NCBI GenBank assembly: GCA_016713535.1
Contig: JADJOY010000020.1
Location: forward strand, 42,900-106,899
DNA from: Deltaproteobacteria bacterium
Lineage (GTDB): Bacteria; JADJOY01
Direction of reading: 5' to 3'
DNA: 64,000 nucleotides
The notes beneath the pieces are model-generated. The model saw only the letters and a list, made by a program, of their open reading frames with translations, did no database searches and was not told the origin of the DNA. Each line of letters begins with the position of its first letter. The first letter of the stretch is position 1. Shown piece after piece: positions 480 through 58,216 of the stretch. Made by a program: the position numbers and the translations under genes.

Positions 480-5534
<5,055 letters not shown>

Positions 5535-12836: not shown

Positions 12837-14539
12837 ATGCATCGACATCGCCGGTTGCTGGTCGTCCCGATCGCGCTCGCCACGCTGTTCACCCTCGCCG
12901 CCGCGCGCGCCGCGACCGCGCAGCACGAGGGCCACACCGACGTCGCCACGGCGGAGAACCTCGGCGCCACCACCACCGCCGGCGCGCTGTCGCCCAAGCT
13001 CCACGACCTCGGCAGCTATTCGCGCAAGGCCTCGACACGCTCGGCGCAAGCCCAGACGTACTTCGATCAGGGGCTGATGCTCGCGTACGCCTTCAACCAC
13101 GCCGAGGCGGAGCGCTCGTTCCGCGAGGCGCAGCGCCTCGATCCCGGCTTCGCGATGGCGTGGTGGGGCCAGGCGTACGTGCTCGGCCCCAACATCAACG
13201 CGCCGATGGACGAGGGTGCGGTCGGCTCCGCGTACGAGGCGGTGCGCAAGGCCGTCGAGCTCGAGGGCAAGGCGAAGCCCTGGGAGCAGGGGCTGATCGC
13301 CGCGCTCGCGGTGCGCTACGGCACCGACCCGAAGGCGGACCGCAAGCCGCTCGACGCCGCCTACGCGCGGGCCATGCAGGACCTCGCCACGCGCCATCCA
13401 AAGGATCCCGACATCCTCGCCATGGCCGCCGAGTCCATCATGGACACCGATCCATGGAACTACTGGACCAACGACGGCCACCCGCGTCCCTACACCGAGG
13501 ACGTGCTGCGGCTGATCGAGAGCGCGCTCGCGGTGAGCCCGAGCCACCCGCTCGCCCTGCACCTCCACATCCACGCCACCGAGGCCTCGCAGGACCCCGA
13601 TCGCGCCCTCGCGAGCGCCGAGAAGCTCGGCCGGGTCGCGCCCGGCGCGGGGCACCTCGTGCACATGCCCGGCCACGCGTTCTTCCGCGTCGGCCGCTAC
13701 CAGGACGCGGTGCAGGCCAACCTCGACGCGATCGCGGTCGACGAGAGCTACATCACCCAGTGCCGCGCGCAGGGCATCTACCCCGCGGCCTACTATCCCC
13801 ACAACATCCACTTCCTGTGGATCGCATCCGCCTACCTCGGCAAGTCCGCCGACGCTCTCGACGCCGCGCACAAGACCGCGAGCAAGGCGCACCCGGGCTG
13901 CCGCTGCCGACCGACCAGTTCCTGGTCACGCCGCTGCACACGCTGGTCAAGTTCGCGCGCTGGAAGGACGTGCTCGGGTACGCCCAGCCGCCCGCCGAGA
14001 ACGTCTTCGCAACCGGCCTGTGGCACTTCGCGCGCGGCATGGCGCTCGCAAACACCGGCGACCCGGGCGCCGCGCAGGCCGAGCTCGAGGCGCTGCGCGC
14101 CGCGCGCAAGAACCCCGCGTTCCCACCCCAGCTCCTCATGGTGAACTCGTCGCCCGCGCGGCTCGCGGAGATCGCCGAGCGCTCGCTGGCCGGCGAGATC
14201 GCGTGGCAGCGCGGCGAGAAGGAGAAGGCCCTCGCCGAGCTCGACGCGGCGGCGCGCCTCGAGGACTCGCTCACCTACAACGAGCCGCCCGACTGGCCCT
14301 TCCCCGTGCGCCACTCCCTCGGCGCGTTGCTCCTCGACCTCGGCCGCCCCGTCGAGGCCGAGGCGGTGTACCGCGAGGACCTGCGGCGCAGGCGCGAGAA
14401 CGGCTGGGCGCTCTTCGGTCTGGTGCAGTCGCTACGCGCTCAGGGCGAGGACCGCGCGACCGACCTGGCGCAGGCCGAGGCGCGCTTCCAGAAGGCGTGG
14501 GCCAAGTCCGACCTGGCGCTCACGTCGTCGCGGTTCTGA
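12837..14539 (+). CDS. Periplasmic TPR-repeat protein; apparent 1-bp frameshift near 13890 at CCCGGG (ORF-track pieces 12759..14144 and 12686..14539)
   Basis: SD GGAGGAA, then ATG and signal peptide MHRHRRLLVVPIALATLFTLAAARAATA. Helical TPR-like sequence continues across the frame junction (KAHPG | LPLPTDQFLVTPLHTLVKFARW). Confidence 0.7.
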
Positions 14540-40351: not shown

Positions 40352-41222
40352 ATGCAAAGCAACCCGATCTACTACGCCATCCCGTTCTTCTTCGCGACCA
40401 TGCTCGGCGAGGCGCTCTGGCTGCGCCGCGACCGCAGTCGCGGACGTCCCTACGAGACCCGCGACACCGCGGCGAGCCTGTCGATGGGTGTGGGCTACCT
40501 GGTGGTGGCGCTCTTCTGGAAAGGGGTCGAGCTCGCGATCTTCTCGGCCTTCTACCAGGTCCGGCTCTTCGATCCCAGGTACCGGTCCGTGGGCGTGGCT
40601 GGCGGTGATGATCGGCTGGGACCTCTGCTACTACGCCTACCATCGCGCAGGACACGTGGTGCGGCTCTTCTGGGCCACGCACGTGAACCACCACTCGAGC
40701 CAGCGCTACAACCTCTCGACCGCGCTGCGCCAGACCTGGACGCCCTACCTCGGCTTCGTCTTCTACGTGCCGCTCGCGATCCTCGGCTTCCGCCCCGAGA
40801 TGATCCTGATCGCGGGCGCCTGGAACCTGCTCTACCAGTACTGGATCCACACCGAGGTGGTCGATCGCCTACCGGCGTGGTTCGAGGCGGTCTTCAACAC
40901 GCCGTCCCACCACCGCGTCCACCACGGCACCAACGCCGAGTACCTCGACAGGAACTACGCCGGGATCCTGATCGTGTGGGACAAGATGTTCGGCACCTTC
41001 GAGCCCGAGGTGGCGCGGCCGATCTACGGACTCACCAAGAACATCGAGACGTACAATCCGGTGGACGTGGCCTTCCACGAATGGCGGGCGATGTTCCGCG
41101 ACGTCGCGCGCGCGACGCGCTGGACGGACCGCCTCCACCTGCTGTTCAGCCACCCCGGCTGGAAGCCAGCGGGCGTGTCGAGCGCCGACGAGCTCGCCTC
41201 GCTTCCCAGCGCGGCGGCCTGA
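40352..41222 (+). CDS. Fatty-acid hydroxylase / sterol-desaturase superfamily membrane protein (His-box); apparent frameshift near 40570
   Basis: His boxes HRAGH, HVNHHSS and HHRVHHG lie in the frame of ORF 39984..41222. The N-terminal TM region (MQSNPIYYAIPFFFATMLGEALWL...) lies in the 40352 frame. Confidence 0.75.
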
Positions 41223-45688: not shown

Positions 45689-47483
45689 CTCGCCGGCGGG
45701 CGAAACCAGCTCGAGCCGCGGGAGCGCCGCGGCAGCGCCGGGCGCGGTCGCGAGGGCGCGTGCGAGGAGCGGCGGGCCCGATTCCCCCGCGGGTGTTCGC
45801 GCCACGAGCGCCTCGAGCTCACCGGCCAGCCCGGCCCGCAGCGCCTCTCCGTCGCCACCGGCCGCGCTCGCGATGCCGAGCAGCTCCCAGCGCAGCAGCC
45901 ACTCGTCGGCATGGCGGCGGCGGAGCGCCCCCGCGATCCGCTGGAGCCCCGGCAACGCGGCCCGCGGATCGCGGTCGTCGGCGAGGGCGCGCGCTTGGCG
46001 ATGGAGCCGGAGCAGGCCGCGCTGGGATGCGGGCCGGCTGCGGCGCGGCGGGAGCCGTCGCGCCGGGAACGACGTCGCGGGCCAGAACCTCGGGTCGGCC
46101 GGACCGGCGAATCCCGCGGTCACGGCGGAGCCGAGCGGCATCACCCACGGCGAGCGTGTGATCGGTAGCGCGAGCGATCCGCGCTTGGCGCTGGCACCCG
46201 CCCACACCAGCGCTACCGGTCGCCCGTCGGGCGCGCGCACCACGTCGACGACGCGGCCGGCGATCGTGACGCCCGAGCGGAATCGCAGCTCGACCGAGCC
46301 CGCCGGGCCAGCCCGCGTCGCGTGGCGTCGCAACCCGTCGCGGTCGAGCGATGCGGGATCGCTGCCGTCCGCGAGCGGACCGAGCGGCAACGCGACCCCG
46401 CCGCGGTGACGGCGCGTCCCTTGGCCGGCGAGCTCGCGATCGTCCCACGCCAGCGCCGCGGGGCCAGCGACCTCGATCCACGCCGGCTCGTCGAGGTCGC
46501 CGCGCACGCGCTCGACCACGCCGGTCACTTCCACCCCCGTGTCGAGCACCAGCGTCGCGACCTCGTGGCTCGCGAGCGCCGCCTCGAGCGCCACCGCGCC
46601 GCCCCGGCGCTGCGCGAGCGTGGCGGTGACCTCGTCGAGCACCTCCTCGAGGTGCTCGAACGAACGCGCCACGAAGAGCTGCGGCTGCGGCCGCGTGATG
46701 TCGTAGCCGACGTCGATGCAGGCCGCCTCGAGCGGGCGCTTTCGCACGGCCGGCGACTGACAGCTCGCGCTCTCGCCCAGCGACGAGAGCAGCCCCGCGC
46801 CGAAGATCCGGAAGTCGTCGAGCTCGCCGACCAGTCCGTACTCGACGGTCCACCAGTGCAGCCGCGCGATGCGCGCCGACTCGCTCAGCCGGCGCGCCCC
46901 CGCGCGCGCCTCCTCGAACGCGCGCTCGGCGCGAGCCCGCTCGTGGGGGGTGGCGCTGGGGTCCTCCTTCACCACCGACAGCTCGTGGATCGCGGTGAAG
47001 AGCCGCCCGTCGCTCGGCAGCGAGAACGCGCGCGCCGATCGCGCCGATCCGCTCGAGGAACCGGCGGTACGCGGCGTCGATCAGGATCGGCGCGTGGCCG
47101 GCAGCCTCGTGGACGATGTCGGGCGCGGGGGTATACGCGAGGTGCTCGGGAGTGCGGACGTCCCCGGCGATCGGCAGGATCGCGTGGGCCTGGAACTCCA
47201 GGAACGCCCTGGGCGGGATGAATCCGTCGACGCACACCGCGCCCCAGCCGAGCTCGCCGAGCCGGCGATCGATCTCGCCGATTCGCGGGATGCGCTCGCG
47301 CGAGATCCCGGTGGCCGCCAACCCCGCCGCATACGCCGGATGGGCAGCGTCGCCGAGCGCTCCCTCGATCTGGCCGAGGATGAAGCGCCACACCGCCTGA
47401 TCGATCTCGTCGTAGGCACGATCGTCGTGTACCGCGACGAAGCGGCGTAGGTGAGCGGGAACTCGTCCGCGCGTGTCGCTCAT
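45689..47483 (-). CDS. phhA: Phenylalanine-4-hydroxylase (PhhA catalytic core, about 47483-46640) followed in frame by a roughly 300-aa uncharacterised coding extension that runs without a stop into hppD. Frameshift near 46940.
   Basis: Aromatic amino-acid hydroxylase motifs YTPAPDIVHEAAGHAPIL (iron ligands), LHWWTVEYGLV, FGAGLLSS and DITRPQPQLFVARSFE. The extension has high GC3. Confidence 0.7.
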
Positions 47484-47633
47484 GGGAGAGAGCCGCGGGG
47501 AATGCGTCGAGCCTGCGCCGTCAGTATGACCGGCCGGACCGGGCACCGCTCGCGTGCGCCATCCGTGACATTCTTGTGACGACCACATCACGGCCGGCGC
47601 CGCCTCGCGGGCGCCCCACGAGAGGGATCCCGG

Positions 47634-48218
47634 ATGGCCTGGACGAAACGCTTCGCCGCGTGCGGCCTGCTCGCGAGCATCTTCTCCCTGCCCGCGTGCG
47701 CCGGTGACGGCGGCTCCTCGTCGAGCTTCCCGCCTGGCGTGCCGAGCGTGGTCTTCGACATCGACGGCACGCTCACGCCAACGCCGGTCAACCTGTTCGG
47801 CGTGCGTCTCGACGCGGCACGCGCGGTCCGGGCGTACGTGGACAAGGGCTACGCAGTGATCTACGCCACGGCGCGGCCGCTGCTCTTCGAGGACTACACC
47901 GGCAACTGGCTCGCGACCAACGGCTTCCCGGACCTACCGCTCCACATGGCCACGCTCGAGCAGAGCGGCGATCCCATCCCCTACAAGACCGCGCTGCTCG
48001 CGGCCCTCGAGCAAGACGAGGGCCGGGTGTTCGTGTACGGCTACGGCGACTCGACCACCGACTTCGCCGCCTACGCCGCGGTCGGGATTCCGGCAGCCGA
48101 GACCTGGGCGCTGCTGCGTGGCGGCGAGAGCGAGTGCCAGCCCGGCGACTACGAGGCGTGCATCCCCGGCTACACCGAGCACCTCGCCTACATCGAGGCC
48201 CAGCCGGACGTCGAGTAG
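47634..48218 (+). CDS. HAD-superfamily phosphatase lipoprotein (lipobox LPAC)
   Basis: HAD motif I VVFDIDGTLT and motif III YGDSTTD. Confidence 0.7.
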   Translation: MAWTKRFAACGLLASIFSLPACAGDGGSSSSFPPGVPSVVFDIDGTLTPTPVNLFGVRLDAARAVRAYVDKGYAVIYATARPLLFEDYTGNWLATNGFPDLPLHMATLEQSGDPIPYKTALLAALEQDEGRVFVYGYGDSTTDFAAYAAVGIPAAETWALLRGGESECQPGDYEACIPGYTEHLAYIEAQPDVE

Positions 48219-48276
48219 CCAGGGGGAAGTGCGCGGCCCGTGGCCTTCGGCGGGCATTCCCCGGAAGCGGGCCGGC

Positions 48277-48345
48277 GACGGGGGATGGAACCCCCGTCGC
48301 TACGATCACCGGCCGTTAGGTCGTCGTAGGGCGGGGCCTCCGCGC
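48277..48345 (+). repeat. REP-like three-hairpin element, family A copy
   Basis: GACGGGGGATGGAACCCCCGTC, GCTACGA...TCGTAGG and GCGGGG-cctccgc-GCCCCCGC, sitting between convergent gene ends. Confidence 0.65.
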
Positions 48346-48352
48346 CCCCGCC

Positions 48353-50098
48353 TCAGAGCTCTTCGAGGAAGACCGGCTCGAAACCGAGCTGGATCGTGAG
48401 CTCGTTACCGGGCGCCGAGAGCGTCTGCGTGGCCGGCGTGGTCTGCCCCGGCGCGGTCACGATCCTGGTGAGCTTCACACTCGCCGTGCCGACCGGGATC
48501 GCCACCGTCTCGCCGTTCGGCACCGCTGGATCCGCCGGAACCGGCCCGGCCTCGCTCCACGCCACGTACACCGGGCCGCCGCTCGGACGATCGAACTTGT
48601 AGACGCGCGTGAGGGGGTTGGCGCTCACGCCGAGCCGGTTCACCGCGGTCATCGACTGCAGCTCGTCCACCAGCAGCTTCATCGTGTAGTAGACGGGCTT
48701 GGTGGCGTAGTTGGTGGCCTTGGTGCCGAGCAGGTGCGAGTAGCCGAACCACCCGAAGATCGCCTGCTGGTCGAGGCACGACGTCAGGAACTGGTAGGCG
48801 CACGGGTCGTTGGATCCCGAGAACGACACGCGCTCGGCGCCCGCGCCGAGCGCGGTCGTGAACGACTTGACCGCTCCCCGCGCGCCCTTGGCGTTGTACC
48901 AGTTCACGATCGTGGCGTTGTTGGCCTTCAGCCCGTCGGCGAGGGTCACGTAGTCGGGGACCGTGGCGTTCGGGAAGTCACCCTCGATCTGCTCGCCGCC
49001 GATGAACTCGGTCCAGCCACCGAGCGGCGAGGTGCGCGCGAACATGTTGGACCACATGTCGTCCACGAAGATCGGCTTGGACGGCGCGTACTGCTGGATC
49101 AGCGCCAGGCTCTGATCGATGGCGCGCCAGCCGTTGTGCGGGTGCCACTCGATGTAGTCGCACTTGATGCCGTCGGAGTCGTCGCCGAGGGCGGTCAGGA
49201 GCTGGACCAACCCGTCGAAGCCGGCGCGGAAGATCGCGCCCTTGGGATTGGCGCCGTCGAGGCGTGCGGACACCGTGCTGCCCGGTCCGGGGTTGGAGGC
49301 GGGGTAGTTCGGGAAGTCGGAGTAGAGGTCGAAGAGCAGGCCGCCGCTGCCGACCAGCTTCGAGAGGCCGCTGGGGTCGGCCTCGTGGATGGCCTCGTAG
49401 GTGATCTCGTGGAGGCGGATCAGGTTGGGGATCGAATCGTCCCAGAAGCCGTAGCCGAGGGCCTCCGCGTAGTCGCCGCTGCCCTCGGTCCCCTCGAACG
49501 CGACCTCTTGGTCCATCACGTAGAACTCGATCGGGACCGTGAGGCCCGGCATGTCTTCGAGCCCGTCGCCGTCGTAGCGCTCGACGACGGCCTTGATGTA
49601 GTCCTTCCAGGCCTGCTCGTGGGCGGCGTCGGGCGCGCAGTCGTCGATGCCCGGACCATCGACGCAGTCGGGGTTCGCGAGCTGCGACCACGCCGCGGTG
49701 GGGCGCAGGTTCCACACCACCGAGAAGCCCTTGGCGCCGATCGTCTGCACCGGCGGATCGGACTGGCTGAAGTCGTAGGGCGAGGTGGGCGTGGGCTGCA
49801 TGGTGGCCCAGCCGCCGCCGATCTCGTTGACGTTGACCCCACCGCGCACCGGCTGGTTGGCGGTGACCACCGCCAGCTTGTCGAGGAGGGTGGCGTGCTG
49901 TGCCGGCGTGACCGTGGGCGCGAAGAGCTCCCAGTACTCGAAGCCGAACCGCCACGGCGGCACCACCGACGTCCCCGGGCCGTTCGAAGCGGTGGCTCCC
50001 GGCGCGACGATCAACGTCGCCGCCGCCACCAGCCCCGCGCCCGCCCCCGCGAGCATTCCCGCCCGCGTCACCATCCGTACCCAGCTCCGCCGCTTCAT
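48353..50098 (-). CDS. Secreted TIM-barrel glycoside-hydrolase-like protein (family not assigned)
   Basis: Signal peptide MKRRSWVRMVTRAGMLAGAGAGLVAAATLIVAPGATAS. Long coding-like body. The upstream 230 codons of the ORF are junk. Confidence 0.65.
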   Translation of the reverse strand: MKRRSWVRMVTRAGMLAGAGAGLVAAATLIVAPGATASNGPGTSVVPPWRFGFEYWELFAPTVTPAQHATLLDKLAVVTANQPVRGGVNVNEIGGGWATMQPTPTSPYDFSQSDPPVQTIGAKGFSVVWNLRPTAAWSQLANPDCVDGPGIDDCAPDAAHEQAWKDYIKAVVERYDGDGLEDMPGLTVPIEFYVMDQEVAFEGTEGSGDYAEALGYGFWDDSIPNLIRLHEITYEAIHEADPSGLSKLVGSGGLLFDLYSDFPNYPASNPGPGSTVSARLDGANPKGAIFRAGFDGLVQLLTALGDDSDGIKCDYIEWHPHNGWRAIDQSLALIQQYAPSKPIFVDDMWSNMFARTSPLGGWTEFIGGEQIEGDFPNATVPDYVTLADGLKANNATIVNWYNAKGARGAVKSFTTALGAGAERVSFSGSNDPCAYQFLTSCLDQQAIFGWFGYSHLLGTKATNYATKPVYYTMKLLVDELQSMTAVNRLGVSANPLTRVYKFDRPSGGPVYVAWSEAGPVPADPAVPNGETVAIPVGTASVKLTRIVTAPGQTTPATQTLSAPGNELTIQLGFEPVFLEEL

Positions 50099-50284
50099 TC
50101 GCCCCTCATCCGGCCGTGGTTCGTCGATCCGTTCGCGAGTCGAACCGAAATCCCTCGGCCGGCGTACAGCATACGCCGCGGCCCGGTTGGCCCGCATCCT
50201 CGACGACGGGAATACGGGCCGTCCCGTGGACCGGTTCGAACGCGCTTTGGTACGCTCCACGTCACCTCCTGGAGGGGACCACCC

Positions 50285-51788
50285 ATGAAGCTGGCTTCCT
50301 CGGCGCTCCGGCGCGCGCTCGGCGTCCTCCTCCTGCTCGTTCTCGTGCCGTGCACGGCGGGCGCGACCACCCACTGGGCGAAGCTCGCGCCCGGGGACGG
50401 CCAGCAATTCGACACCTTCGGGCTCGCGGTCGCGATCGACGGCGACACCATCATCGTCTCGAAGGGCACCGTGATCCCGCAGTCGGGACCGGGCTGGCTC
50501 TACGCGTTCACGCGCAGCGGCGGGAAGTGGACCCAGGCGCAGAAGTTCCAGCCGAGCGGCATCCAGCCAGGCGAGTGGTTCGGCGCCCTCGACCTGGAGG
50601 GCACGACACTGGTGGGCTCGAGCGCGCCGCAGCTCAACACGCTCGGCTCGAACGCCGCCTCGGCCTACGTGTTCGAGAAGAGCGGCTCGACGTGGGCGGC
50701 CACCCAGAAGCTCCCCCTCCGATCCGGGCGCGCAGGACGACTTCGGCTCGTGGATCGCGGTGAGCGGCACCACGCTGGCGGTGGGTGCCGGGCGCAAGGC
50801 CGATCAGGGGCTCGGCTCGGGCGCGGTGTACGTGTTCGAGAAGGGCGGCACCGGCTGGACCCAGACCCAGAAGCTCGTGGCGGGCGATGGCACCCAGGGC
50901 GCGATGTTCGGCACCAGCGTCGACATCGACGGCTCGACGATCGTGGTCGGCGCACCCGGTGATCCCAGCCACGGCAACCTCACCGGCGCGGTGTACGTCT
51001 TCCAGAAGACCTCGGGCGTGTGGAACCAGACCCAGAAGCTGATCGCGAGCGACGCCACCGCGAACCAGTTCCTCGGCGACCGGGTGGCGCTCTCCGGCAC
51101 CTCGCTGGTGGCGAGCGCCTGGGGTACCGCCACCCAGGGCAACACCGCGGGCGCGGTGTACGCGTGGGAGCTGGCGAGCGGCAGCTTCGCTCAGAGCCAG
51201 AAGATCATCCCCGCCGACACCGGCGCCCAGGACCGCTTCGGCGCCGCGCTGGCGCTGAAGAACGGAAGCCTCGTGGTCGGCGCGGTCGGCGACGACGACC
51301 GCGGCCCCAACACCGGCGCGGCCTACGTCTTCACCAAGCCGGGTGCGACGTGGACGCAGCTCGAGAAGCTCACCGCGTCGGACAGCACCAGCGACGAGGA
51401 CTACGCGGCCGCCGTGGCGACCAACGGCAACTGGATGGTGGTGGCGGCGGACGCCAACGGCCTCGGGCTGGTCGGCTCCTCCTACGTCTACGGCAAGACC
51501 GACGCCGACGGCGACGGCTACCCGGTCGAGGTCGACTGCCTCGACACCAACGCGAACGTGAACCCCGGTAAGACCGAGGTCCCCAACAACGGGATCGACG
51601 ACGACTGCAACGCTGCCACCCCCGATACGACTGGCTGCGGCCGCGTCGCCGGCGGCATGACCGGTGGCGCGGTGCCGTTCGCGGTGGCAGCCGTGGGGCT
51701 GGCCGCCGTGCGGTTCGGCTTCCGCCGCCGCCCTCGCCCAGCCGACCGATGGAGCGCCGGCAGGTTGGGTGTGCCGAGGGCGCAGTAG
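50285..51788 (+). CDS. Secreted FG-GAP repeat protein with MopE-type motif and MYXO-CTERM tag; frameshift near 50720 at CCCCC
   Basis: MKLASSALRRALGVLLLLVLVPCTAGA. Repeated GSAYVFEKSG..W motifs. C-terminus NNGIDDDCNAATPDTTGCGRVAGGMTGGAVPFAVAAVGLAAVRFGFRRRPRP. Confidence 0.75.
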
Positions 51789-51818
51789 GTGACCGGAGCA
51801 GTAGGTGACACGTAGAAG

Positions 51819-52139
51819 GTGACACTCATTTTGCCGAGTCGTAAACGACGAGAGCCTGCGGACGGAGCCTCAGGGAAACCCAGATTCATTTCCTCGTTAC
51901 TCGCTACGTGTGCGGCGGTCGGGGGGTTGGTCATCATCGTGCCGTTGATCGATCGATACCTTGTTGCTCTCTCATTGGACGTCTCGATGCTGCCCTTCAT
52001 GCCTGGCGCTCTCCTCGTGTCGATGTTGGGAGGTGACGCCCTTGATATCAGCCGGATGCAGATCTTTGCAGCAAACGTCCCGGTGTACACGCTTGTCGTT
52101 CACATTGTTCGCCTCGCCCTGTATCAGCGGCACGCATAG
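51819..52139 (+). CDS. Small 2-TM membrane protein of foreign codon usage, hypothetical
   Basis: GTG start lies inside the GGTGACACTCAT repeat. GC3 is low, so the coding call is uncertain. Confidence 0.3.
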   Translation: MTLILPSRKRREPADGASGKPRFISSLLATCAAVGGLVIIVPLIDRYLVALSLDVSMLPFMPGALLVSMLGGDALDISRMQIFAANVPVYTLVVHIVRLALYQRHA

Positions 52140-52417
52140 CCCTCGGGAGGGTTCCGCTCGCCTTCCCCACGGTGCCAATCGGGATCGCGCGCAATAGGTG
52201 ACACTCATCTCCTCCTCGTCCGTCCAGGAGCTGCTTGGCCACGGTACCGTCGCCACGCCGGATCCGCACTTCGAACTCACCATCACCGATCTCGAGGAAG
52301 CGCACGCGAGGTATCATCCGAGGAAGCGGGCCGATGGGCTGACCCGCCCGCGTTGAGAGCCTTGGATCCCGCCGCTACACTCGAACCTTGGCGTCCGCAT
52401 CCAAGGAGACACCGGCC

Positions 52418-52640
52418 ATGATCTTCCACGTCGTACTCGAGCCACCCGATGATCGCGGGTGGATCGTGGTGCGGTGCCCAGCGCTGCCGGGTTGTGTATC
52501 GCAGGGCAAGACGGAGAAGGAGGCCCTCGAAATATCAAGGAGGCGATCGTCGGCTGGCTCCACGTCGAGGATCAACGAGCGATCGCGGCCGAGCCTCGCA
52601 AGGGGAGCCGCTGGTTCCCATCGCCGTCGCAGTGTGAACG
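52418..52640 (+). pseudogene. hicB: HicB-family (UPF0150) antitoxin, disrupted by a 1-bp frameshift near 52535 (gaaatatc, expected gaaaatatc)
   Basis: SD AAGGAG. MIFHVVLEPPDDRGWIVVRCPALPGCVSQGKTEKEALE, then in the +2 frame NIKEAIVGWLHVEDQ..., restoring the HicB consensus EALENIKEAI. Confidence 0.55.
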
Positions 52641-52644
52641 CGAC

Positions 52645-52866
52645 GTGGGCAAGCTCGGAAACATCTCAGCGAAAGAAGCGGTGAAGGCATTCCGTCGAGC
52701 AGGCTGGCGACCGTCGATCCAAGTCGGGAGCCATCCCACCCTCATCAAGCCCGGTCACCGGGCGCATCTTTCGATCCCGATGCACCGCGAGCTTGCCGTG
52801 GGCACGCTGCGATCGCTCATCCGCGACGCGGAGATGACAGTCGACGAGTTTCTCGCGCTCCTTTGA
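52645..52866 (+). CDS. hicA: HicA-family mRNA-interferase toxin
   Basis: ...AKEAVKAFRRAGWRPSIQVGSHPTLIKPGHRAHLSIPMHRELAVGTLRSLIRDAEMTVDEFLALL matches the HicA/YcfA fold consensus (GW...GSHH...P.H..ei..gtl..i...agl). The start is uncertain (GTG 52645 or 52678). Confidence 0.6.
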   Translation: MGKLGNISAKEAVKAFRRAGWRPSIQVGSHPTLIKPGHRAHLSIPMHRELAVGTLRSLIRDAEMTVDEFLALL

Positions 52867-53044
52867 CCGCTGCTGCCAGGGCGGCGGCCCCCGGGAGGGC
52901 CACCAGCAGTCGGCGTCGTGGGGCCACCTGCGATGATCGCGAACGATCGAGCGCAGAACGTCAGGTTGGGGACCCGCGTAACGCGAAGCCGACGCCCCTG
53001 GAGCGTGTGAAGGCCCGTCTGGGCCTCTGAGCCGCGCCGTTACC

Positions 53045-54721
53045 TCAGCCTCCGAAGTACGTGGCGACGTACCGGTCCATCTCGGCGGTGGGCTTCCACC
53101 ACTTCTTGACGCCCAGGTCGTCCGCAACCCGGTTCGCGCCGAGATAGCCCCCGCCGCCGAGGACGCCTCCGCCCGGATAGTTGGACGCACCCGCGGTGTA
53201 GAGGCCCGGGATCGGCGTGATGCTGCTCGAGCACTCCTGGTTGGGCCGGAAGCAGCCGAGCTGGATCGGCAGGTAGTCGCCGTGCTTGATGGCGCCGCGG
53301 CGCATGTTGGGGAAGCGGATCTCGATGTCGACCGGTGTCTCCTGGTGGGTCATGACGATGTTCTCGCGGCGCATGTTGGGCGCGTAGCGCGCCCAGCGCG
53401 CGAGCATCGCGTCCTCGATCGCCGCGCCGCGCGCCTCCCAGCCGCCTTCGAGGTCGTAGGGCGCGTGCATCTGCAGGAACGCCACCTTGCGGTGCGCGCG
53501 CGACGGCGGGACCCGCACCAGGTGGCTGTCCCAGCTGCTCTCGCAGGTCGCGTGGCCGCCGAGCGCCGCCGGGTCGAGCTTGCCGGCGATGACGTTGTCC
53601 CAATGCGCGAGGAGCTGTGCCGAGCCCTCGAAGCCGAGGATGGTCATGAACGCCTCGCTCGCCCACGGATCCTTGGGGAGGTAGCGCGGCGCCTCCTCGG
53701 CGACGACGTGCAAGGTGTCGAAGCTCCACTTGTCGTACTTCCAGCCGCTGACGGCGGTGTGGAGCTCGCTCGGCAGGTTGCCGCCACCCACCAGATCGAG
53801 GAACGTCGTGTGCGGGTCGAGGGTGGAGATCACCACGTCGCTGAAGAGCGTGCGTCCCTCCCACAGCTCCACGCCCGCCACGCGGCCGTTGCGGAGCAGG
53901 ATCTTATCGACCTGCGACGAGTCGAGGATCAGCCCGCCGGCGCGCACGAACTCGCGCGCGAGCGCGCCCGCGAGCTTGTGCGAGCCGCCCTGGCAGTAGC
54001 ACTTGTTCATCAGCCGATCGAGGTAGAGCGGAACGAAGAGCCCGAGCCCGGTCTCGCGCGGATCGAGCCCCCACATGCACACGTGGTAGAGGAGGAACGC
54101 ACGGATGCGGTCGTTCTCGAACAGGCTCTCGATGACGTCGAGGGGGCTGCGTTCGACCAGCTCGAGGAGCTCGCGACCTTCGGCGGTCTTCTGGAACGCC
54201 ACGCTGATGTCGATGGGCGCGAGCGGCGGCAGGTACGTCGCGGGCGCGATGATCTCGCGCACGATCTTGCGCCAACGCCCCATCGTGCGGCTGAAGGTGT
54301 CGGCGTCCTTCACCGAGAACTTCATGAACGAGTCGGCGGTGTCCTCGATCATGCGCGTCAGCAGCAGCGACTCGCCGTTCTCGAACACCATCGAGCTCTG
54401 CAGGTTCGGCTTGATCCACACCAGCCCGTGCTTGGCGAGATCGAAGTCCCTGAGCGCCGGCATGTAGTCGACCATCATGTGGTAGATGGCGTGCATGTTC
54501 GAGTAGTAGCCGGGGAACAGGATCTCCTCGGTCGCGAGCCCCCCACCGATCTCGTAGCGCCGCTCGACCAGCGCCACCTTGAGCCCGGCGCGCGCGAGGT
54601 AGGCGGCGGCGATCAGACCGTTGTGTCCCGCTCCGATCACGACGACGTCCCAGCGGCTCTCGGGAGGGAACTCCTCGAAGAAGCTCTGGGGATGCTGAAA
54701 ACCCTTGAACTCGTGCGGCAT
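53045..54721 (-). CDS. NAD(P)/FAD-dependent oxidoreductase, phytoene-desaturase (CrtI)-like family, paralog 1
   Basis: VVVIGAGHNGLIAAAYLARAGLKVALVERR, with amine-oxidase/CrtI-like architecture. Confidence 0.85.
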   Translation of the reverse strand: MPHEFKGFQHPQSFFEEFPPESRWDVVVIGAGHNGLIAAAYLARAGLKVALVERRYEIGGGLATEEILFPGYYSNMHAIYHMMVDYMPALRDFDLAKHGLVWIKPNLQSSMVFENGESLLLTRMIEDTADSFMKFSVKDADTFSRTMGRWRKIVREIIAPATYLPPLAPIDISVAFQKTAEGRELLELVERSPLDVIESLFENDRIRAFLLYHVCMWGLDPRETGLGLFVPLYLDRLMNKCYCQGGSHKLAGALAREFVRAGGLILDSSQVDKILLRNGRVAGVELWEGRTLFSDVVISTLDPHTTFLDLVGGGNLPSELHTAVSGWKYDKWSFDTLHVVAEEAPRYLPKDPWASEAFMTILGFEGSAQLLAHWDNVIAGKLDPAALGGHATCESSWDSHLVRVPPSRAHRKVAFLQMHAPYDLEGGWEARGAAIEDAMLARWARYAPNMRRENIVMTHQETPVDIEIRFPNMRRGAIKHGDYLPIQLGCFRPNQECSSSITPIPGLYTAGASNYPGGGVLGGGGYLGANRVADDLGVKKWWKPTAEMDRYVATYFGG

Positions 54722-54744
54722 GGCCCATCCCTCCTCGGGGGTGC

Positions 54745-56484
54745 TCAGGATCGAGCGCGTCCTTCACCTCGCTTCGCCGAAATCTTCCCCTTCTCGGGGA
54801 TGTACCAAGGCGACGCGTACCACCAGTCGCCGGGCTCCGCGACGCCATCCTCGATCAGGATGTGCATCAGGTTGTAGCCGACGGCCATCAAGCACAGCCC
54901 GCCTGGATGCGCCGCCGACTGGTGCGCCAGGTAGAGCCCCTCGATCTCGGGGACGCGATAGCGCGCGAGCTCGGGGAGCGGCCGCGCGTTCCACCACTGG
55001 TCGCGGTCGCAACGAATGCCGTACCACGACCCACCGAGCATGCCGGTGTTGCGGAACTCCTGCTCGAACGGACTGTCGCTCCACATCCGCACCAGGTTGT
55101 CGTCGTCGAGGTTTTCCACCACGCACGAGAGCGTCTGACGCATGTATTCGTCCCAGCGCTTCTTGTCGGCCGGCGTTCGGTCCATCGCGTCGACGCCGTC
55201 GACGTTGTATTCGGGCGTCGGCACCATCATCCAGAGCGGGCCGTTCACGTAGTAGCCGTCGCGCGTGCACTGGGGCTGGGTGGGGTCGTAGAGGTTCGCG
55301 GCCACCATTCCCCACATCGCCTGGTCGGGTGGGATGTCGAGGTTCTGCTGGCGCCCCACCACGCACTCCAGGTTCTTGAAGTAGAGCTCCTTCGACTCCA
55401 TGCAGTAGAAGCCGCCCGTGAACGGGTGCGGCTCCTGGTCGAGCCACTTGAACTTCGGCCGGTAACGCAGCTCCTCGCGCGTGAGGAAGTGCGCCATGTA
55501 GAGGCTTCCGCCCTTGAGGCTGAGATCGGCGATGCGCTGCCGGAAGCCGGCGTCGAGATGCTGGGCGCCGATCATCTTCAGGAAGGTGGGCTTGATGTGG
55601 GCGGCGCTGATGACCGCCTTGTCGGCCCAGATCCGCTTGGCGCCCCAGGTCGCGTCGTCGCGCAGCCGCACACCCGCGGCGCGGCCGTTCTGGATGATGA
55701 TCTCCTCGACCGGGCAGCAGGTGCGGAAGGTCGCACCGTGCGCGATCGCGCAGCGAAACAGCGCGTGGTAGTAGCCGTGCATGTTGCCGCGCGCCGCCAC
55801 CGGCTTCGCGACCGCCGGCGGCAGCACCGTCGCGACGCACTCGACGGCCGGCACGGCCATTCCCGGGAAGTGTCCGAAGGCGCCCGAGACGTTCGCGATG
55901 TACGCCTGATGGACCTTGAACGGCTCACTGTCGATGGCCTGGTCCATGAAGTCGAACATCGTCCATTCGAGCATCTCCTTGGTCCAGAACTCCGGCATCG
56001 AGTCGCGGAACACCTGCATGTACGGGATGGTGTTCTCGTCGAGCTCGACGTAGCTCGGATGGGGCGGCGTCCAGAACGTCGCGCGCAGCAGATCCTTGTA
56101 ACAAGGCGGGTCGCTCAAGAGCCCGGTGATCTTGGCCCAACCCATCTTGTCCTCGTCGGAGACCCGCACCAGGCCGTCGCGGGTCATCGGCCCGCGATCC
56201 TGATCGAACGGCACCTCCTTGCGCGGGTCGTAGTCCATGCGGAAGCCGTAGCGCCACAGTTCGAGCTGCTCCCAGCCCGGCGCCGAGCCGCCGTAGTTGC
56301 CGATCGCGTGCGGCTGGATCCGCACTCCCGCCATCGGCTCGCAGGTCTCCTGCGCGCCGCCGCACTCCGGGCGGTCCTCCAGCACGCACACCCTGAGGCC
56401 GCACTTGGAAAGGTAGGCCGCGGTGGTCGTGCCGTTGTGGCCGGCGCCGATGATGACCACGTCGTAGCGTTCGTCCTTCGCCAT
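54745..56484 (-). CDS. CrtI-like FAD-dependent oxidoreductase, paralog 2
   Basis: VVIIGAGHNGTTTAAYLSKCGLRVCVLEDR. Clear paralog of 53045..54721. Confidence 0.85.
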   Translation of the reverse strand: MAKDERYDVVIIGAGHNGTTTAAYLSKCGLRVCVLEDRPECGGAQETCEPMAGVRIQPHAIGNYGGSAPGWEQLELWRYGFRMDYDPRKEVPFDQDRGPMTRDGLVRVSDEDKMGWAKITGLLSDPPCYKDLLRATFWTPPHPSYVELDENTIPYMQVFRDSMPEFWTKEMLEWTMFDFMDQAIDSEPFKVHQAYIANVSGAFGHFPGMAVPAVECVATVLPPAVAKPVAARGNMHGYYHALFRCAIAHGATFRTCCPVEEIIIQNGRAAGVRLRDDATWGAKRIWADKAVISAAHIKPTFLKMIGAQHLDAGFRQRIADLSLKGGSLYMAHFLTREELRYRPKFKWLDQEPHPFTGGFYCMESKELYFKNLECVVGRQQNLDIPPDQAMWGMVAANLYDPTQPQCTRDGYYVNGPLWMMVPTPEYNVDGVDAMDRTPADKKRWDEYMRQTLSCVVENLDDDNLVRMWSDSPFEQEFRNTGMLGGSWYGIRCDRDQWWNARPLPELARYRVPEIEGLYLAHQSAAHPGGLCLMAVGYNLMHILIEDGVAEPGDWWYASPWYIPEKGKISAKRGEGRARS

Positions 56485-56580
56485 CGCTCGTCCCTCGTTC
56501 CGATCCCGTCGTGCGGCGCACCAAGCGCCCTGCGGATGCCTCGCTCACCCGTTCGATCGGCGGCGTTCCCGGGCCCCATC

Positions 56581-58056
56581 TCACGCCACGGCCGCGCCGG
56601 CGGGCTGGCGCAGGTACGCGAGCACGGCGCGCGCGACGGCCATGCCCGAGGTCGCGGCCTGGTGCGTGCCCATTCCCGCGGCGCCCGCGTCGGTCCCCGC
56701 GAGGAAGAGCCCCGCGATGGGGGTCTCGACGCCGGGCTTGTGGCGGCCGCACTGGCCGACGATCTGGCCGAGGCCGACGCACTCGCCGCCCTGGCCGGGG
56801 AGCACCGAGTCGCGGGTATGCGCCGAGATCTCGGCCGGGCCGTCGGTCTCACGCTCGACGACCGCCTTCCACGCCTCCGGGTAGACGCGCTCGATCATGG
56901 CGTCGACGCGCCGGTAGAGCGCGTCGATCTCGGAGGCCTTTGGGTCCGATGAGCAGATCGTCCCGGCGATCAGGCACTGCCGGCCGGGAGGCGCCATCGC
57001 CGGGTCGAAGACCGCGGGCACGGTGAGGAACACGATCACCTCGTCGGGAACGTGTCCCTCGGTCACGCGCCGCGCGCGCTCGGCGTTCCACCAGCTCTCG
57101 TCCGAGTACAGCATCGCCATGCCGGTGCGGAAGACCGGCGCGTCGAGGAAGTAGCGGACCGTCGCCCAGCCTCCTCCCGGCGCCAGTGCGCGCACCCGCT
57201 CGAGATACGTGGCGTCGAGGTGCTTGGATCCGACGAGCTTGAGCATCGTCGGCTGGATGCCGGCGCTCGACACGACGGCGCGGGCGCGGATGCGGCCGTG
57301 CTGCGTTTCGACGCCCTGCACGCGGCCGTCGTCGATCCGGATCCGCTCGACCCGGTGCGCCGTGTGGATCTCCCCGCCCATGCCGCGGAATGCCTCGGCG
57401 ATGTCGTCGAGCACGCGCCCGAAGCCGCCGCGGTAGTACCCGCCGGCTCCACGCAGCGCGATGTCCTGGAGGATGCGGACCTGCTCGGAGGCGGCGACGC
57501 GGTCGATGTACTCGGCGAGCGACGCGTTCGCGTGCATCGCCATGTAGCTGTAGAGCCGCCACGGCACTCCCGCGCGCGAACCGAGGTACTCGTGCATCGT
57601 CAGGTCGTCGAGCGCGTCCAGCTCGGCGCCCTCGAGCATCACGAGCTCGGTGAGGCGGCTGAACGCGTCCAGACGCTCGGCCTCCGTCAGGCCCCACAGA
57701 TCGAAGAGCGGCGTCGGGTCATCCCCGGTCTGCGGCGCCACGACCGTGCGATAGGTGCCCTCGTCCCTCGGGCGGTACGAGAGCGTCGCCGCCTCGAGGG
57801 GGATGGCGCCGAGGCGCGTCGAGAGGCCGAGCGCTCCGAACAGGGTCTCGAACGCCGGGCTGCGCATCGGCACCTGGAGCTTGGGGCCGAGCTCGTAGCG
57901 GAAGCCGCGCCGCGACACCGTGACGGGCTTTCCCCCGACGCGGGTACCCTTCTCGACGAGGACCACTCTGGTTCCGTGGTGGGCGAGGAGAGCGGCACAC
58001 GCCAGCCCACCCGGACCTCCACCGATGACCACCACGTCCGCGACGTCGTTCGCCAT
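56581..58056 (-). CDS. CrtI/CrtD-like FAD-dependent oxidoreductase, paralog 3
   Basis: VVVIGGGPGGLACAALLAHHGTRVVLVEKGTRVGGK. Confidence 0.85.
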   Translation of the reverse strand: MANDVADVVVIGGGPGGLACAALLAHHGTRVVLVEKGTRVGGKPVTVSRRGFRYELGPKLQVPMRSPAFETLFGALGLSTRLGAIPLEAATLSYRPRDEGTYRTVVAPQTGDDPTPLFDLWGLTEAERLDAFSRLTELVMLEGAELDALDDLTMHEYLGSRAGVPWRLYSYMAMHANASLAEYIDRVAASEQVRILQDIALRGAGGYYRGGFGRVLDDIAEAFRGMGGEIHTAHRVERIRIDDGRVQGVETQHGRIRARAVVSSAGIQPTMLKLVGSKHLDATYLERVRALAPGGGWATVRYFLDAPVFRTGMAMLYSDESWWNAERARRVTEGHVPDEVIVFLTVPAVFDPAMAPPGRQCLIAGTICSSDPKASEIDALYRRVDAMIERVYPEAWKAVVERETDGPAEISAHTRDSVLPGQGGECVGLGQIVGQCGRHKPGVETPIAGLFLAGTDAGAAGMGTHQAATSGMAVARAVLAYLRQPAGAAVA

Positions 58057-58216
58057 GACGCCCTCCGGGATCCGCGAGCGCGATCCGGTTCGGTCGAACG
58101 AATGAAACGTGTTCTACCGGAGGCACGGTACGACTCGAACCGCGGGATTCCCGTGATCGGGGTCACGATACGACGCGAAAGTGGACTTCCCGCGGCAGGG
58201 CTGGCGCGCGGCGCCG

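Follow-up and report, generated by a model that had tools for sequence, protein, structure and literature searches.

A compact hicB-hicA pair and a linked orphan membrane protein gene in a probably acquired low-GC islet of a Deltaproteobacteria genome

Results and discussion

The low-GC islet studied here is likely to be a small acquired module of three genes, in which an orphan membrane protein gene is linked to a compact hicB-hicA toxin-antitoxin pair. The module, about 1.07 kb long (~51,795-52,866 of the window, i.e. of the whole 64-kb stretch of DNA that was analyzed), would have been gained horizontally and placed between an FG-GAP gene and a convergent CrtI-like gene. It appears to be organized as two units on the plus strand, the first being the gene of the orphan protein with three predicted helices and the second the hicB-hicA operon (Table 1). 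The upstream gene had been overlooked in an earlier reading of this DNA (hereafter the sequence-only reading), although it appears to be a genuine conserved gene of the module.

Table 1. Coordinates of the features discussed in the text (positions in the window)
Feature	Position	Strand	Remarks
Three tandem motif copies	51786..51829	+	TAGGTGAC (51786), TAGGTGACAC (51802), AAGGTGACACTCAT (51816)
Orphan small membrane protein gene	51819..52139	+	106 aa, GTG 51819; conserved upstream of hicBA in L080-L084
Fourth motif copy, TAGGTGACACTCAT	52195..52208	+	56 nt past the membrane ORF stop, 210 nt before the hicB ATG
Sigma-70-like promoter match, TTGAGA-17-TACACT	52353..52381	+	Upstream of hicB; consensus match only
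hicB antitoxin, small, without DNA-binding domain	52418..52637	+	PF15919, PHROG 497, alignment to L080/81/83
hicA toxin, 73 aa, GTG start	52645..52866	+	PF07927, identity to MBK7975378.1
Native-GC spacer	52867..53044	.	GC 0.725, 178 bp, from the hicA stop to the stop of the convergent CrtI-like gene
Candidate frame switches	~4351-4366, ~13891-13906, ~40576-40621		GC3 frame plot

Extent and origin of the module

Comparison of the window with the 8-kb locus L080, which belongs to a second lineage, revealed the module (from ~51,800 to exactly 52,867) as the sole common segment. In the loci of that lineage (L080-L085) a Lactamase_B gene lies upstream and a 313-aa gene downstream, and the flanking genes are unrelated to those of the window. 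The GC content of the module is 0.62-0.64 against 0.72 in the flanks here, and 0.635-0.64 against 0.67-0.70 in the second host. Horizontal acquisition is suggested by these observations taken together, since only the module is common to the two loci, its flanks are unrelated, and its GC content is below that of both hosts. Within the window (mean GC 0.72), the segment 51789-53040 has a GC content of 0.634, the membrane ORF of 0.567, hicB of 64.1% and hicA of 62.6%, and 300-nt windows with values of 0.56-0.61 are confined to ~51800-52299. The dip to about 59% over roughly 1.25 kb described in the sequence-only reading is thus real, but it is shallower (63.4%) and ends at the hicA stop codon at 52866; the spacer that follows lies outside the common module, and homology with the second lineage stops exactly at its first nucleotide.

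Among relatives, no syntenic locus without the islet was detected. When species-representative genomes were scanned with the CrtI-like protein, 79 loci with at most 84% identity were returned, among which neither an FG-GAP, hic or membrane gene in the neighborhood nor an orthologous junction was detected, and in a protein search with the same query the top identity was likewise 85%; hence we infer acquisition only from the base composition and the second genomic context. In agreement with the sequence-only reading, integrases and transposases are absent within ~6 kb (judged from the precomputed Pfam families of the genes predicted in L086, another assembly of the locus), and neither terminal inverted repeats nor repeats bounding the whole element were found. 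The module has no blastn match among plasmid and phage records, a metagenome scan for further copies by peptide patterns gave nothing, and a scan with a 21-nt DNA pattern gave 25 chance matches, none of them accompanied by a hic or membrane gene. Searches for structured RNAs and tRNAs returned 0 Rfam matches at E<=1 and 0 tRNAs, and the local folds are no better than those of shuffled sequences (z from -1.4 to +0.1).

The upstream neighbor encodes an FG-GAP/MopE-motif protein, which had been described as a MYXO-CTERM protein. Its tail (51640-51788) comprises a Cys-Gly, a hydrophobic helix and an RRR stretch, and only resembles the MYXO-CTERM signal, for which the NCBIfam/TIGRFAM search gave no match at E<=10. 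The assignment of the downstream neighbor as CrtI-like, on the other hand, is borne out by Pfam (amine-oxidase/DAO). The FG-GAP tail extends 18 aa beyond the RRR and terminates inside the first copy of the repeated motif, which supplies the TAG stop codon; in L086 this tail is changed by the loss of 1 nt at 51757. On the other side, 53045-58056 of the minus strand carry three tandem paralogous genes of CrtI-like/amine-oxidase FAD oxidoreductases (558, 579 and 491 aa), and the closest homologs of the first, found in metagenome-assembled genomes (MAGs) of Binatia, Myxococcota and Dehalococcoidia, are only 83-85% identical to it.

The hicB and hicA genes

The profile HMM analysis assigned both genes of the pair to the families proposed in the sequence-only reading, each above the Pfam gathering score that was used as the cutoff. 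The repaired HicB matches HicB_lk_antitox (PF15919) with 33.5 bits (cutoff 27) over profile positions 1-52 of 123, and the HicB-like family PHROG 497 with a value of 1.2e-13, while the Pfam search revealed no HTH, RHH or Phd match in it. HicA matches HicA_toxin (PF07927) with 51.4 bits (cutoff 27, E 1.2e-13) over nearly the entire profile (positions 2-57 of 58). The 73-aa HicB would comprise the partial RNase-H-like toxin-binding domain alone, and the 73-aa HicA the toxin domain with its G-S-H motif. With both deletions discussed below repaired, hicB has 73 codons, its product ends in PIAVAV, and its TGA (52635-52637) is separated from the GTG of hicA by a 7-nt spacer. The window HicA is identical to MBK7975378.1, a protein annotated by NCBI in a Deltaproteobacteria bacterium MAG, and its length recurs in 108 of the best 120 of 738 homologs. 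The nearest relatives (L080-L085) possess HicA proteins 85% identical to it and the same arrangement, with a 73-aa hicB, a 9-nt spacer and a 73-aa hicA. In relatives with 73-75% identical HicA a 71-aa hicB is followed by a 73-aa hicA, and neither the membrane gene nor the motif is present at these loci.

Differences between the two lineages fall mostly on third codon positions (positions 1/2/3: 4/1/28 in hicB and 7/6/28 in hicA), a pattern that points to purifying selection on both genes. All invariant columns of the HicA alignment are kept in the window, including G28-S29-H30, and only the next two residues are atypical. Codons 31-32 (52736-52740) read CCC ACC (Pro-Thr) in the window and CTC CAC/CAT (Leu-His) in L086 and in the L080 lineage, a difference equivalent to a compensated pair of 1-nt indels; the first residue after G-S-H is hydrophobic in 9 of the 9 other aligned homologs.

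Transcription of hicBA would probably start from the sigma-70-like site listed in Table 1 (1 such match found versus 0.2 expected), and a Shine-Dalgarno sequence, AAGGAGA, precedes hicB at 52403-52409. The TACACT hexamer and the Shine-Dalgarno sequence are kept in L081, whereas the -35 element is not. Toxins of the HicA family cleave mRNA independently of translation and are kept inactive by direct binding of HicB. By analogy with the family, the toxicity of the HicA protein would be restrained by its HicB partner, and depletion of HicB would release free HicA and lead to growth arrest, with an addiction or abortive-infection type of behavior as the possible outcome. The GC-rich 13-mers GCCCTCGGGAGGG (52139-52151) and GCCCCCGGGAGGG (52887-52899), which are similar to each other and can form hairpins, are located just behind the stop codons of the membrane gene and hicA, respectively; their fold energies are no better than those of shuffled sequences.

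Two deletions in hicB

In the window the reading frame of hicB is not intact. Alignment of the DNA to the intact hicB genes of L080, L081 and L083 located two 1-bp deletions, one after 52530 and one at 52612, while the sequence-only reading had correctly noticed a frameshift but counted a single 1-bp event. Its observation that no stop codon separates hicB from hicA after repair holds for the window with the first shift alone repaired (ORF 52459-52866), because of the second deletion; its alternative proposal of a second error therefore accounts for the missing stop.

Searches with the membrane ORF retrieved three other assemblies of the same locus: L086 (JGI sample 3300056625, 99.68% identical, covering 45930-58130 of the window, i.e. 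12.2 kb), L087 (JGI sample 3300038804, different from that of L086, 99.5% identical) and L088 (ENA, a shorter stretch). The hicB genes of L086 and L087 are identical to each other, encode an intact protein of 73 aa and lack both deletions. The two assemblies disagree with the window at 52211, where L088 does so too, and at 52530 and 52612-15, and L086, the only one of the three that spans hicA, differs also at 52736-39. Comparison with L086 revealed in addition two 2-bp deletions private to the window, at 47026 and 50713. Re-addition of CG at 47026 extends a minus-strand frame from 825 to 1110 codons, in a region where a 960-aa Biopterin_H/glyoxalase gene is called in L086, and re-addition of CT (as in L086) at 50713 yields an uninterrupted FG-GAP protein of 501 aa that carries a signal peptide; the product of the upstream neighbor is thus a protein of ~501 aa starting near 50285 and not the 342-aa ORF. 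The GC3 frame plot recovered both positions and indicated three more candidate frame switches without a stop codon (Table 1). The switch at ~4360 parts TPR and GAF domains from a sigma-54 AAA+/HTH_8 module, which would together make up a canonical single-protein architecture, and the switch at ~13900 has TPR matches on both sides; all three are probably further assembly indels.

The L086 assembly is error-prone too, in a manner different from that of the window assembly. Homopolymer insertions break its CrtI-like gene and alter the ends of its hicA, which, having gained one G just behind the GTG start and TT close to the 3' end, is called as a 101-aa gene (L086:6709-7014). In another part of the window (49742-49904, in a 573-aa minus-strand gene) 9 substitutions relative to L086, mostly C<->G, occur within 160 bp; this cluster could be due to recombination between strains or to a local consensus problem.

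Since the hicB deletions are absent from two independent assemblies, and the window carries private frame-breaking deletions in conserved neighboring genes as well, we find it fairly probable that the hicB deletions and the Pro-Thr patch of hicA, all private to the window assembly, are consensus errors and not biology. What speaks against this interpretation is that two indels, a cluster of three changes and a compensated indel pair are all found within 450 bp of hicBA, at a density above the rate of the window elsewhere (~1 per 10 kb).

The concentration of the discrepancies with L086 and L087 in hicBA (52530, 52612-15, 52736-39) is what a genuine decay would also produce. According to this scenario, which is close to the 'degraded mobile remnant' of the sequence-only reading, the toxin-antitoxin module is dying in the strain of the window; HicA would have been crippled first, by the exchange of Leu-His for Pro-Thr directly after G-S-H through the compensated indel pair, and two frameshifts in hicB would have followed. 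It agrees with the Pro at a position that is otherwise hydrophobic, and with the consideration that a broken antitoxin gene beside an intact toxin gene is viable only if the toxin is inactive or silent. However, the same assembly exhibits private frame-breaking deletions in two conserved neighbors and other candidate frame switches; at an overall strain divergence of ~0.15%, neutral decay would not be expected to bring about four or more independent events within 450 bp; and errors of consensus building or polishing are a more typical source of complex clusters of changes. Altogether, decay strikes us as a doubtful explanation, if one to be taken seriously. From the 'degraded mobile remnant' we retain the foreign composition and the lack of a mobility gene, but not degradation as the preferred reading, because hicB is intact in two assemblies, hicBA appears to be under purifying selection, and the window has other private frame-breaking indels. 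Errors in the consensus of the window assembly are therefore the interpretation adopted below.

The orphan membrane protein gene and the repeated motif

The start of the membrane ORF coincides with the repeated motif: GTG 51819 and the alternative TTG 51831 are the sole possible upstream start codons, and both belong to the 51816 copy. The predicted protein has a basic N-terminus followed by three hydrophobic helices. The gene shows 73-76% DNA identity (64-68% at the protein level) to its counterparts in L080-L084, without stop codons in any of them, and its differences are distributed over codon positions 1/2/3 as 22/9/42; the absence of stops and this distribution suggest that the ORF is a real gene under purifying selection. 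Beyond the two lineages, no homologs were detected among 5.8e9 clustered or 1.84e9 representative proteins, and the protein has no match in Pfam, NCBIfam or PADLOC. The single-sequence AF2 model is helical, with a pLDDT of 54 that is too poor for a fold search. Two other ORFs of the islet, 52198-52356 on the plus strand (MTLI...) and 52048-52317 on the minus strand, were rejected as genes: they are not conserved in L081, and the 1-nt difference that L086, L087 and L088 show at 52211 shifts both frames.

The 13-mer AGGTGACACTCAT is present exactly twice in the 64 kb, at 51817 and 52196. The related sequence TAGGTGAC is found at 51786 and 51802, at the start of the islet, and again at 52195, and AAGGTGAC at 51816. 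Written out, the window copies are TAGGTGACCGGAGC, TAGGTGACACGTAG and AAGGTGACACTCAT upstream of the membrane gene and TAGGTGACACTCAT downstream of it. The three repeats within 45 bp that had been reported are accordingly two exact ones followed by AAGGTGAC, so that the count of three is approximate. The recurrence of the 13-mer some 370 bp further on is confirmed by the copy at 52196, but the GTG-initiated MTLI ORF with which it had been associated is the non-conserved one rejected above. In L080 and L081 the membrane ORF is preceded by the corresponding copies TACGTGACATTCAT and GAAGGCAACGATC and followed by TAGGTGACACTAGG and TTGGCGACACTCAC (L081:1528 and 1552). Thus, the copies bracket the membrane gene in direct orientation in both lineages. 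Apart from the -10/Shine-Dalgarno region, the remaining 280-bp spacer between the membrane gene and hicB has no blastn match at E 1e-3. Because the core is kept at equivalent positions while the rest of the spacer gives no blastn match, the motif is apparently maintained by selection, and we take TAGGTGACAC(TCAT) to be a cis element that is conserved on either side of the membrane gene. The repetition as such is only modestly significant, since an exact direct repeat of 13 nt is also present in 2.5% of the dinucleotide-shuffled versions of the region.

The 51816 copy holds the GTG start of the membrane ORF, and its AGGTGA matches the Shine-Dalgarno complement of the 16S rRNA 3' end, so this copy would overlap both the start codon and the ribosome-binding region of the gene. 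An in-frame GTG is found in the analogous copy of L080-L083, and in L084 a 14-nt indel at this place makes the start uncertain. The other copies may be duplicated initiation regions or candidate sites for a trans-acting factor.

The repeats may also be viewed as insertion scars, i.e. as a target-site duplication or a recombination core left by a mobile cassette, in line with the 'relic of insertion ends' proposed earlier. The exact 13-mers do flank a 366-bp segment with the membrane gene, the copies crowd at the left edge of the islet and abut the stop codon of the neighbor, and every copy is in direct orientation. However, the exact repeats bracket the membrane gene alone and not the whole module or islet, the right edge of the module has no copy, and neither terminal inverted repeats nor a recombinase accompany them. 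Moreover, the core is kept in a lineage diverged by ~20-25% although the spacer around it gives no match at the above threshold, which argues for selection. We regard scars as an improbable origin of the repeats.

One could speculate further that the membrane protein, the HicBA pair devoid of a DNA-binding domain and the 14-nt TAGGTGACACTCAT work together as a single unit of three parts. The motif, which lies ahead of each of the two transcription units, would then act as the operator of a regulator or as a shared translational control site. The membrane gene and the motif have been found together in only two lineages, however, and the linkage could be historical, so that we give this idea a very low probability.

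That the motif is a promoter of a phage single-subunit RNA polymerase, through which an infecting phage would transcribe the toxin module, is hardly credible: TAGGTGACACTA matches the SP6 promoter core (11-12-nt identity in both lineages), and the copies point towards the downstream genes, but conservation does not extend to the AT-rich segment for melting and initiation (TATAG), the IMG/VR scan for TAGGTGACACTCAT gave single chance-like matches and no multi-copy contig, phage and plasmid records contain no match, and we know of no cognate phage for the host. The likeness to the SP6 promoter core is treated here as a coincidence. The motif as a conserved cis element at the membrane gene is the interpretation that we retain.

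Relationship to known hic systems

Class 2 of the hic loci (PMC10865869, Gerdes 2024, mBio) is characterized by the reversed gene order, with hicB first, and by a small HicB of 63-103 codons without a DNA-binding domain, and it is, together with Class 1, the most prevalent context of HicA. With its two cistrons, hicB preceding hicA, and the 73-codon HicB, the locus is best assigned to Class 2 on sequence grounds; it shares with that class the small antitoxin, the ~70-aa HicA with a dsRBD-type HicA domain and the compact bicistronic operon. The opinion of the sequence-only reading that this order is the less common one does not hold, given the prevalence of Class 2 (PMC10865869), and all relatives examined share the order. 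The locus differs from Class 2 in the presence, in two lineages, of the upstream orphan membrane gene and of the repeated 14-nt motif, and in that hicB is broken in the assembly of the window.

HicAB of E. coli K-12 (Class 3) has in common with the present pair the PF07927 toxin and the partial RNase-H-like N-domain of the antitoxin (PF15919), and the mechanism is presumed to be the same, i.e. mRNA cleavage neutralized by direct binding. The gene order is reversed here and, unlike the E. coli antitoxin, the window HicB lacks a DNA-binding domain; autoregulation must therefore differ between the two systems. Among the known structures, similarity to 9svk, 1whz (T. thermophilus) and 4p78 (Y. pestis HicA3) extends over the HicA core (E ~1e-3), and similarity to 6g1c over the N-domain of HicB (E ~1e-2). 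All four are distant relatives and none belongs to the 73-aa subfamily.

Fused small-HicB/HicA genes exist and make up Class 12 (PMC10865869), and the stop-free frame obtained after repair of the first shift alone would yield a similar monocistronic hicBA, with the domain order and sizes as in Class 12. The genes of that class are single ORFs, whereas in the intact copies of the locus and in its nearest relatives hicB ends at a stop codon and, after a spacer of 7-9 nt, hicA begins at a GTG of its own; with the 73 aa typical of HicA homologs, and with the HicB C-terminus regained in the third frame, a single fused protein, which the sequence-only reading had considered possible, is excluded for practical purposes in favor of a bicistronic arrangement of 73 + 73 aa.

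The locus represents an ordinary and well-understood kind of element, and its frameshift and fusion are very likely artefacts. When an antitoxin gene of a MAG looks frameshifted or fused beside an intact toxin gene, it should first be compared with independent assemblies or with reads, and only then be interpreted as a pseudogene, a fusion or a case of recoding. The biological weight of the finding is small, as it adds one more copy to a very common class of compact toxin-antitoxin systems, and only two features are mildly new, the orphan membrane gene linked to it and the repeated motif that is conserved with it, each seen in just two lineages. Regulation of the Class 1 and Class 2 loci has been called an open question because their HicB proteins have no DNA-binding domain (PMC10865869). 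If the three-part unit considered above were real, it would couple the expression of the membrane protein to that of the toxin, and it would offer a handle on the regulation of Class 1 and Class 2 hic loci, the antitoxins of which are unable to bind DNA.
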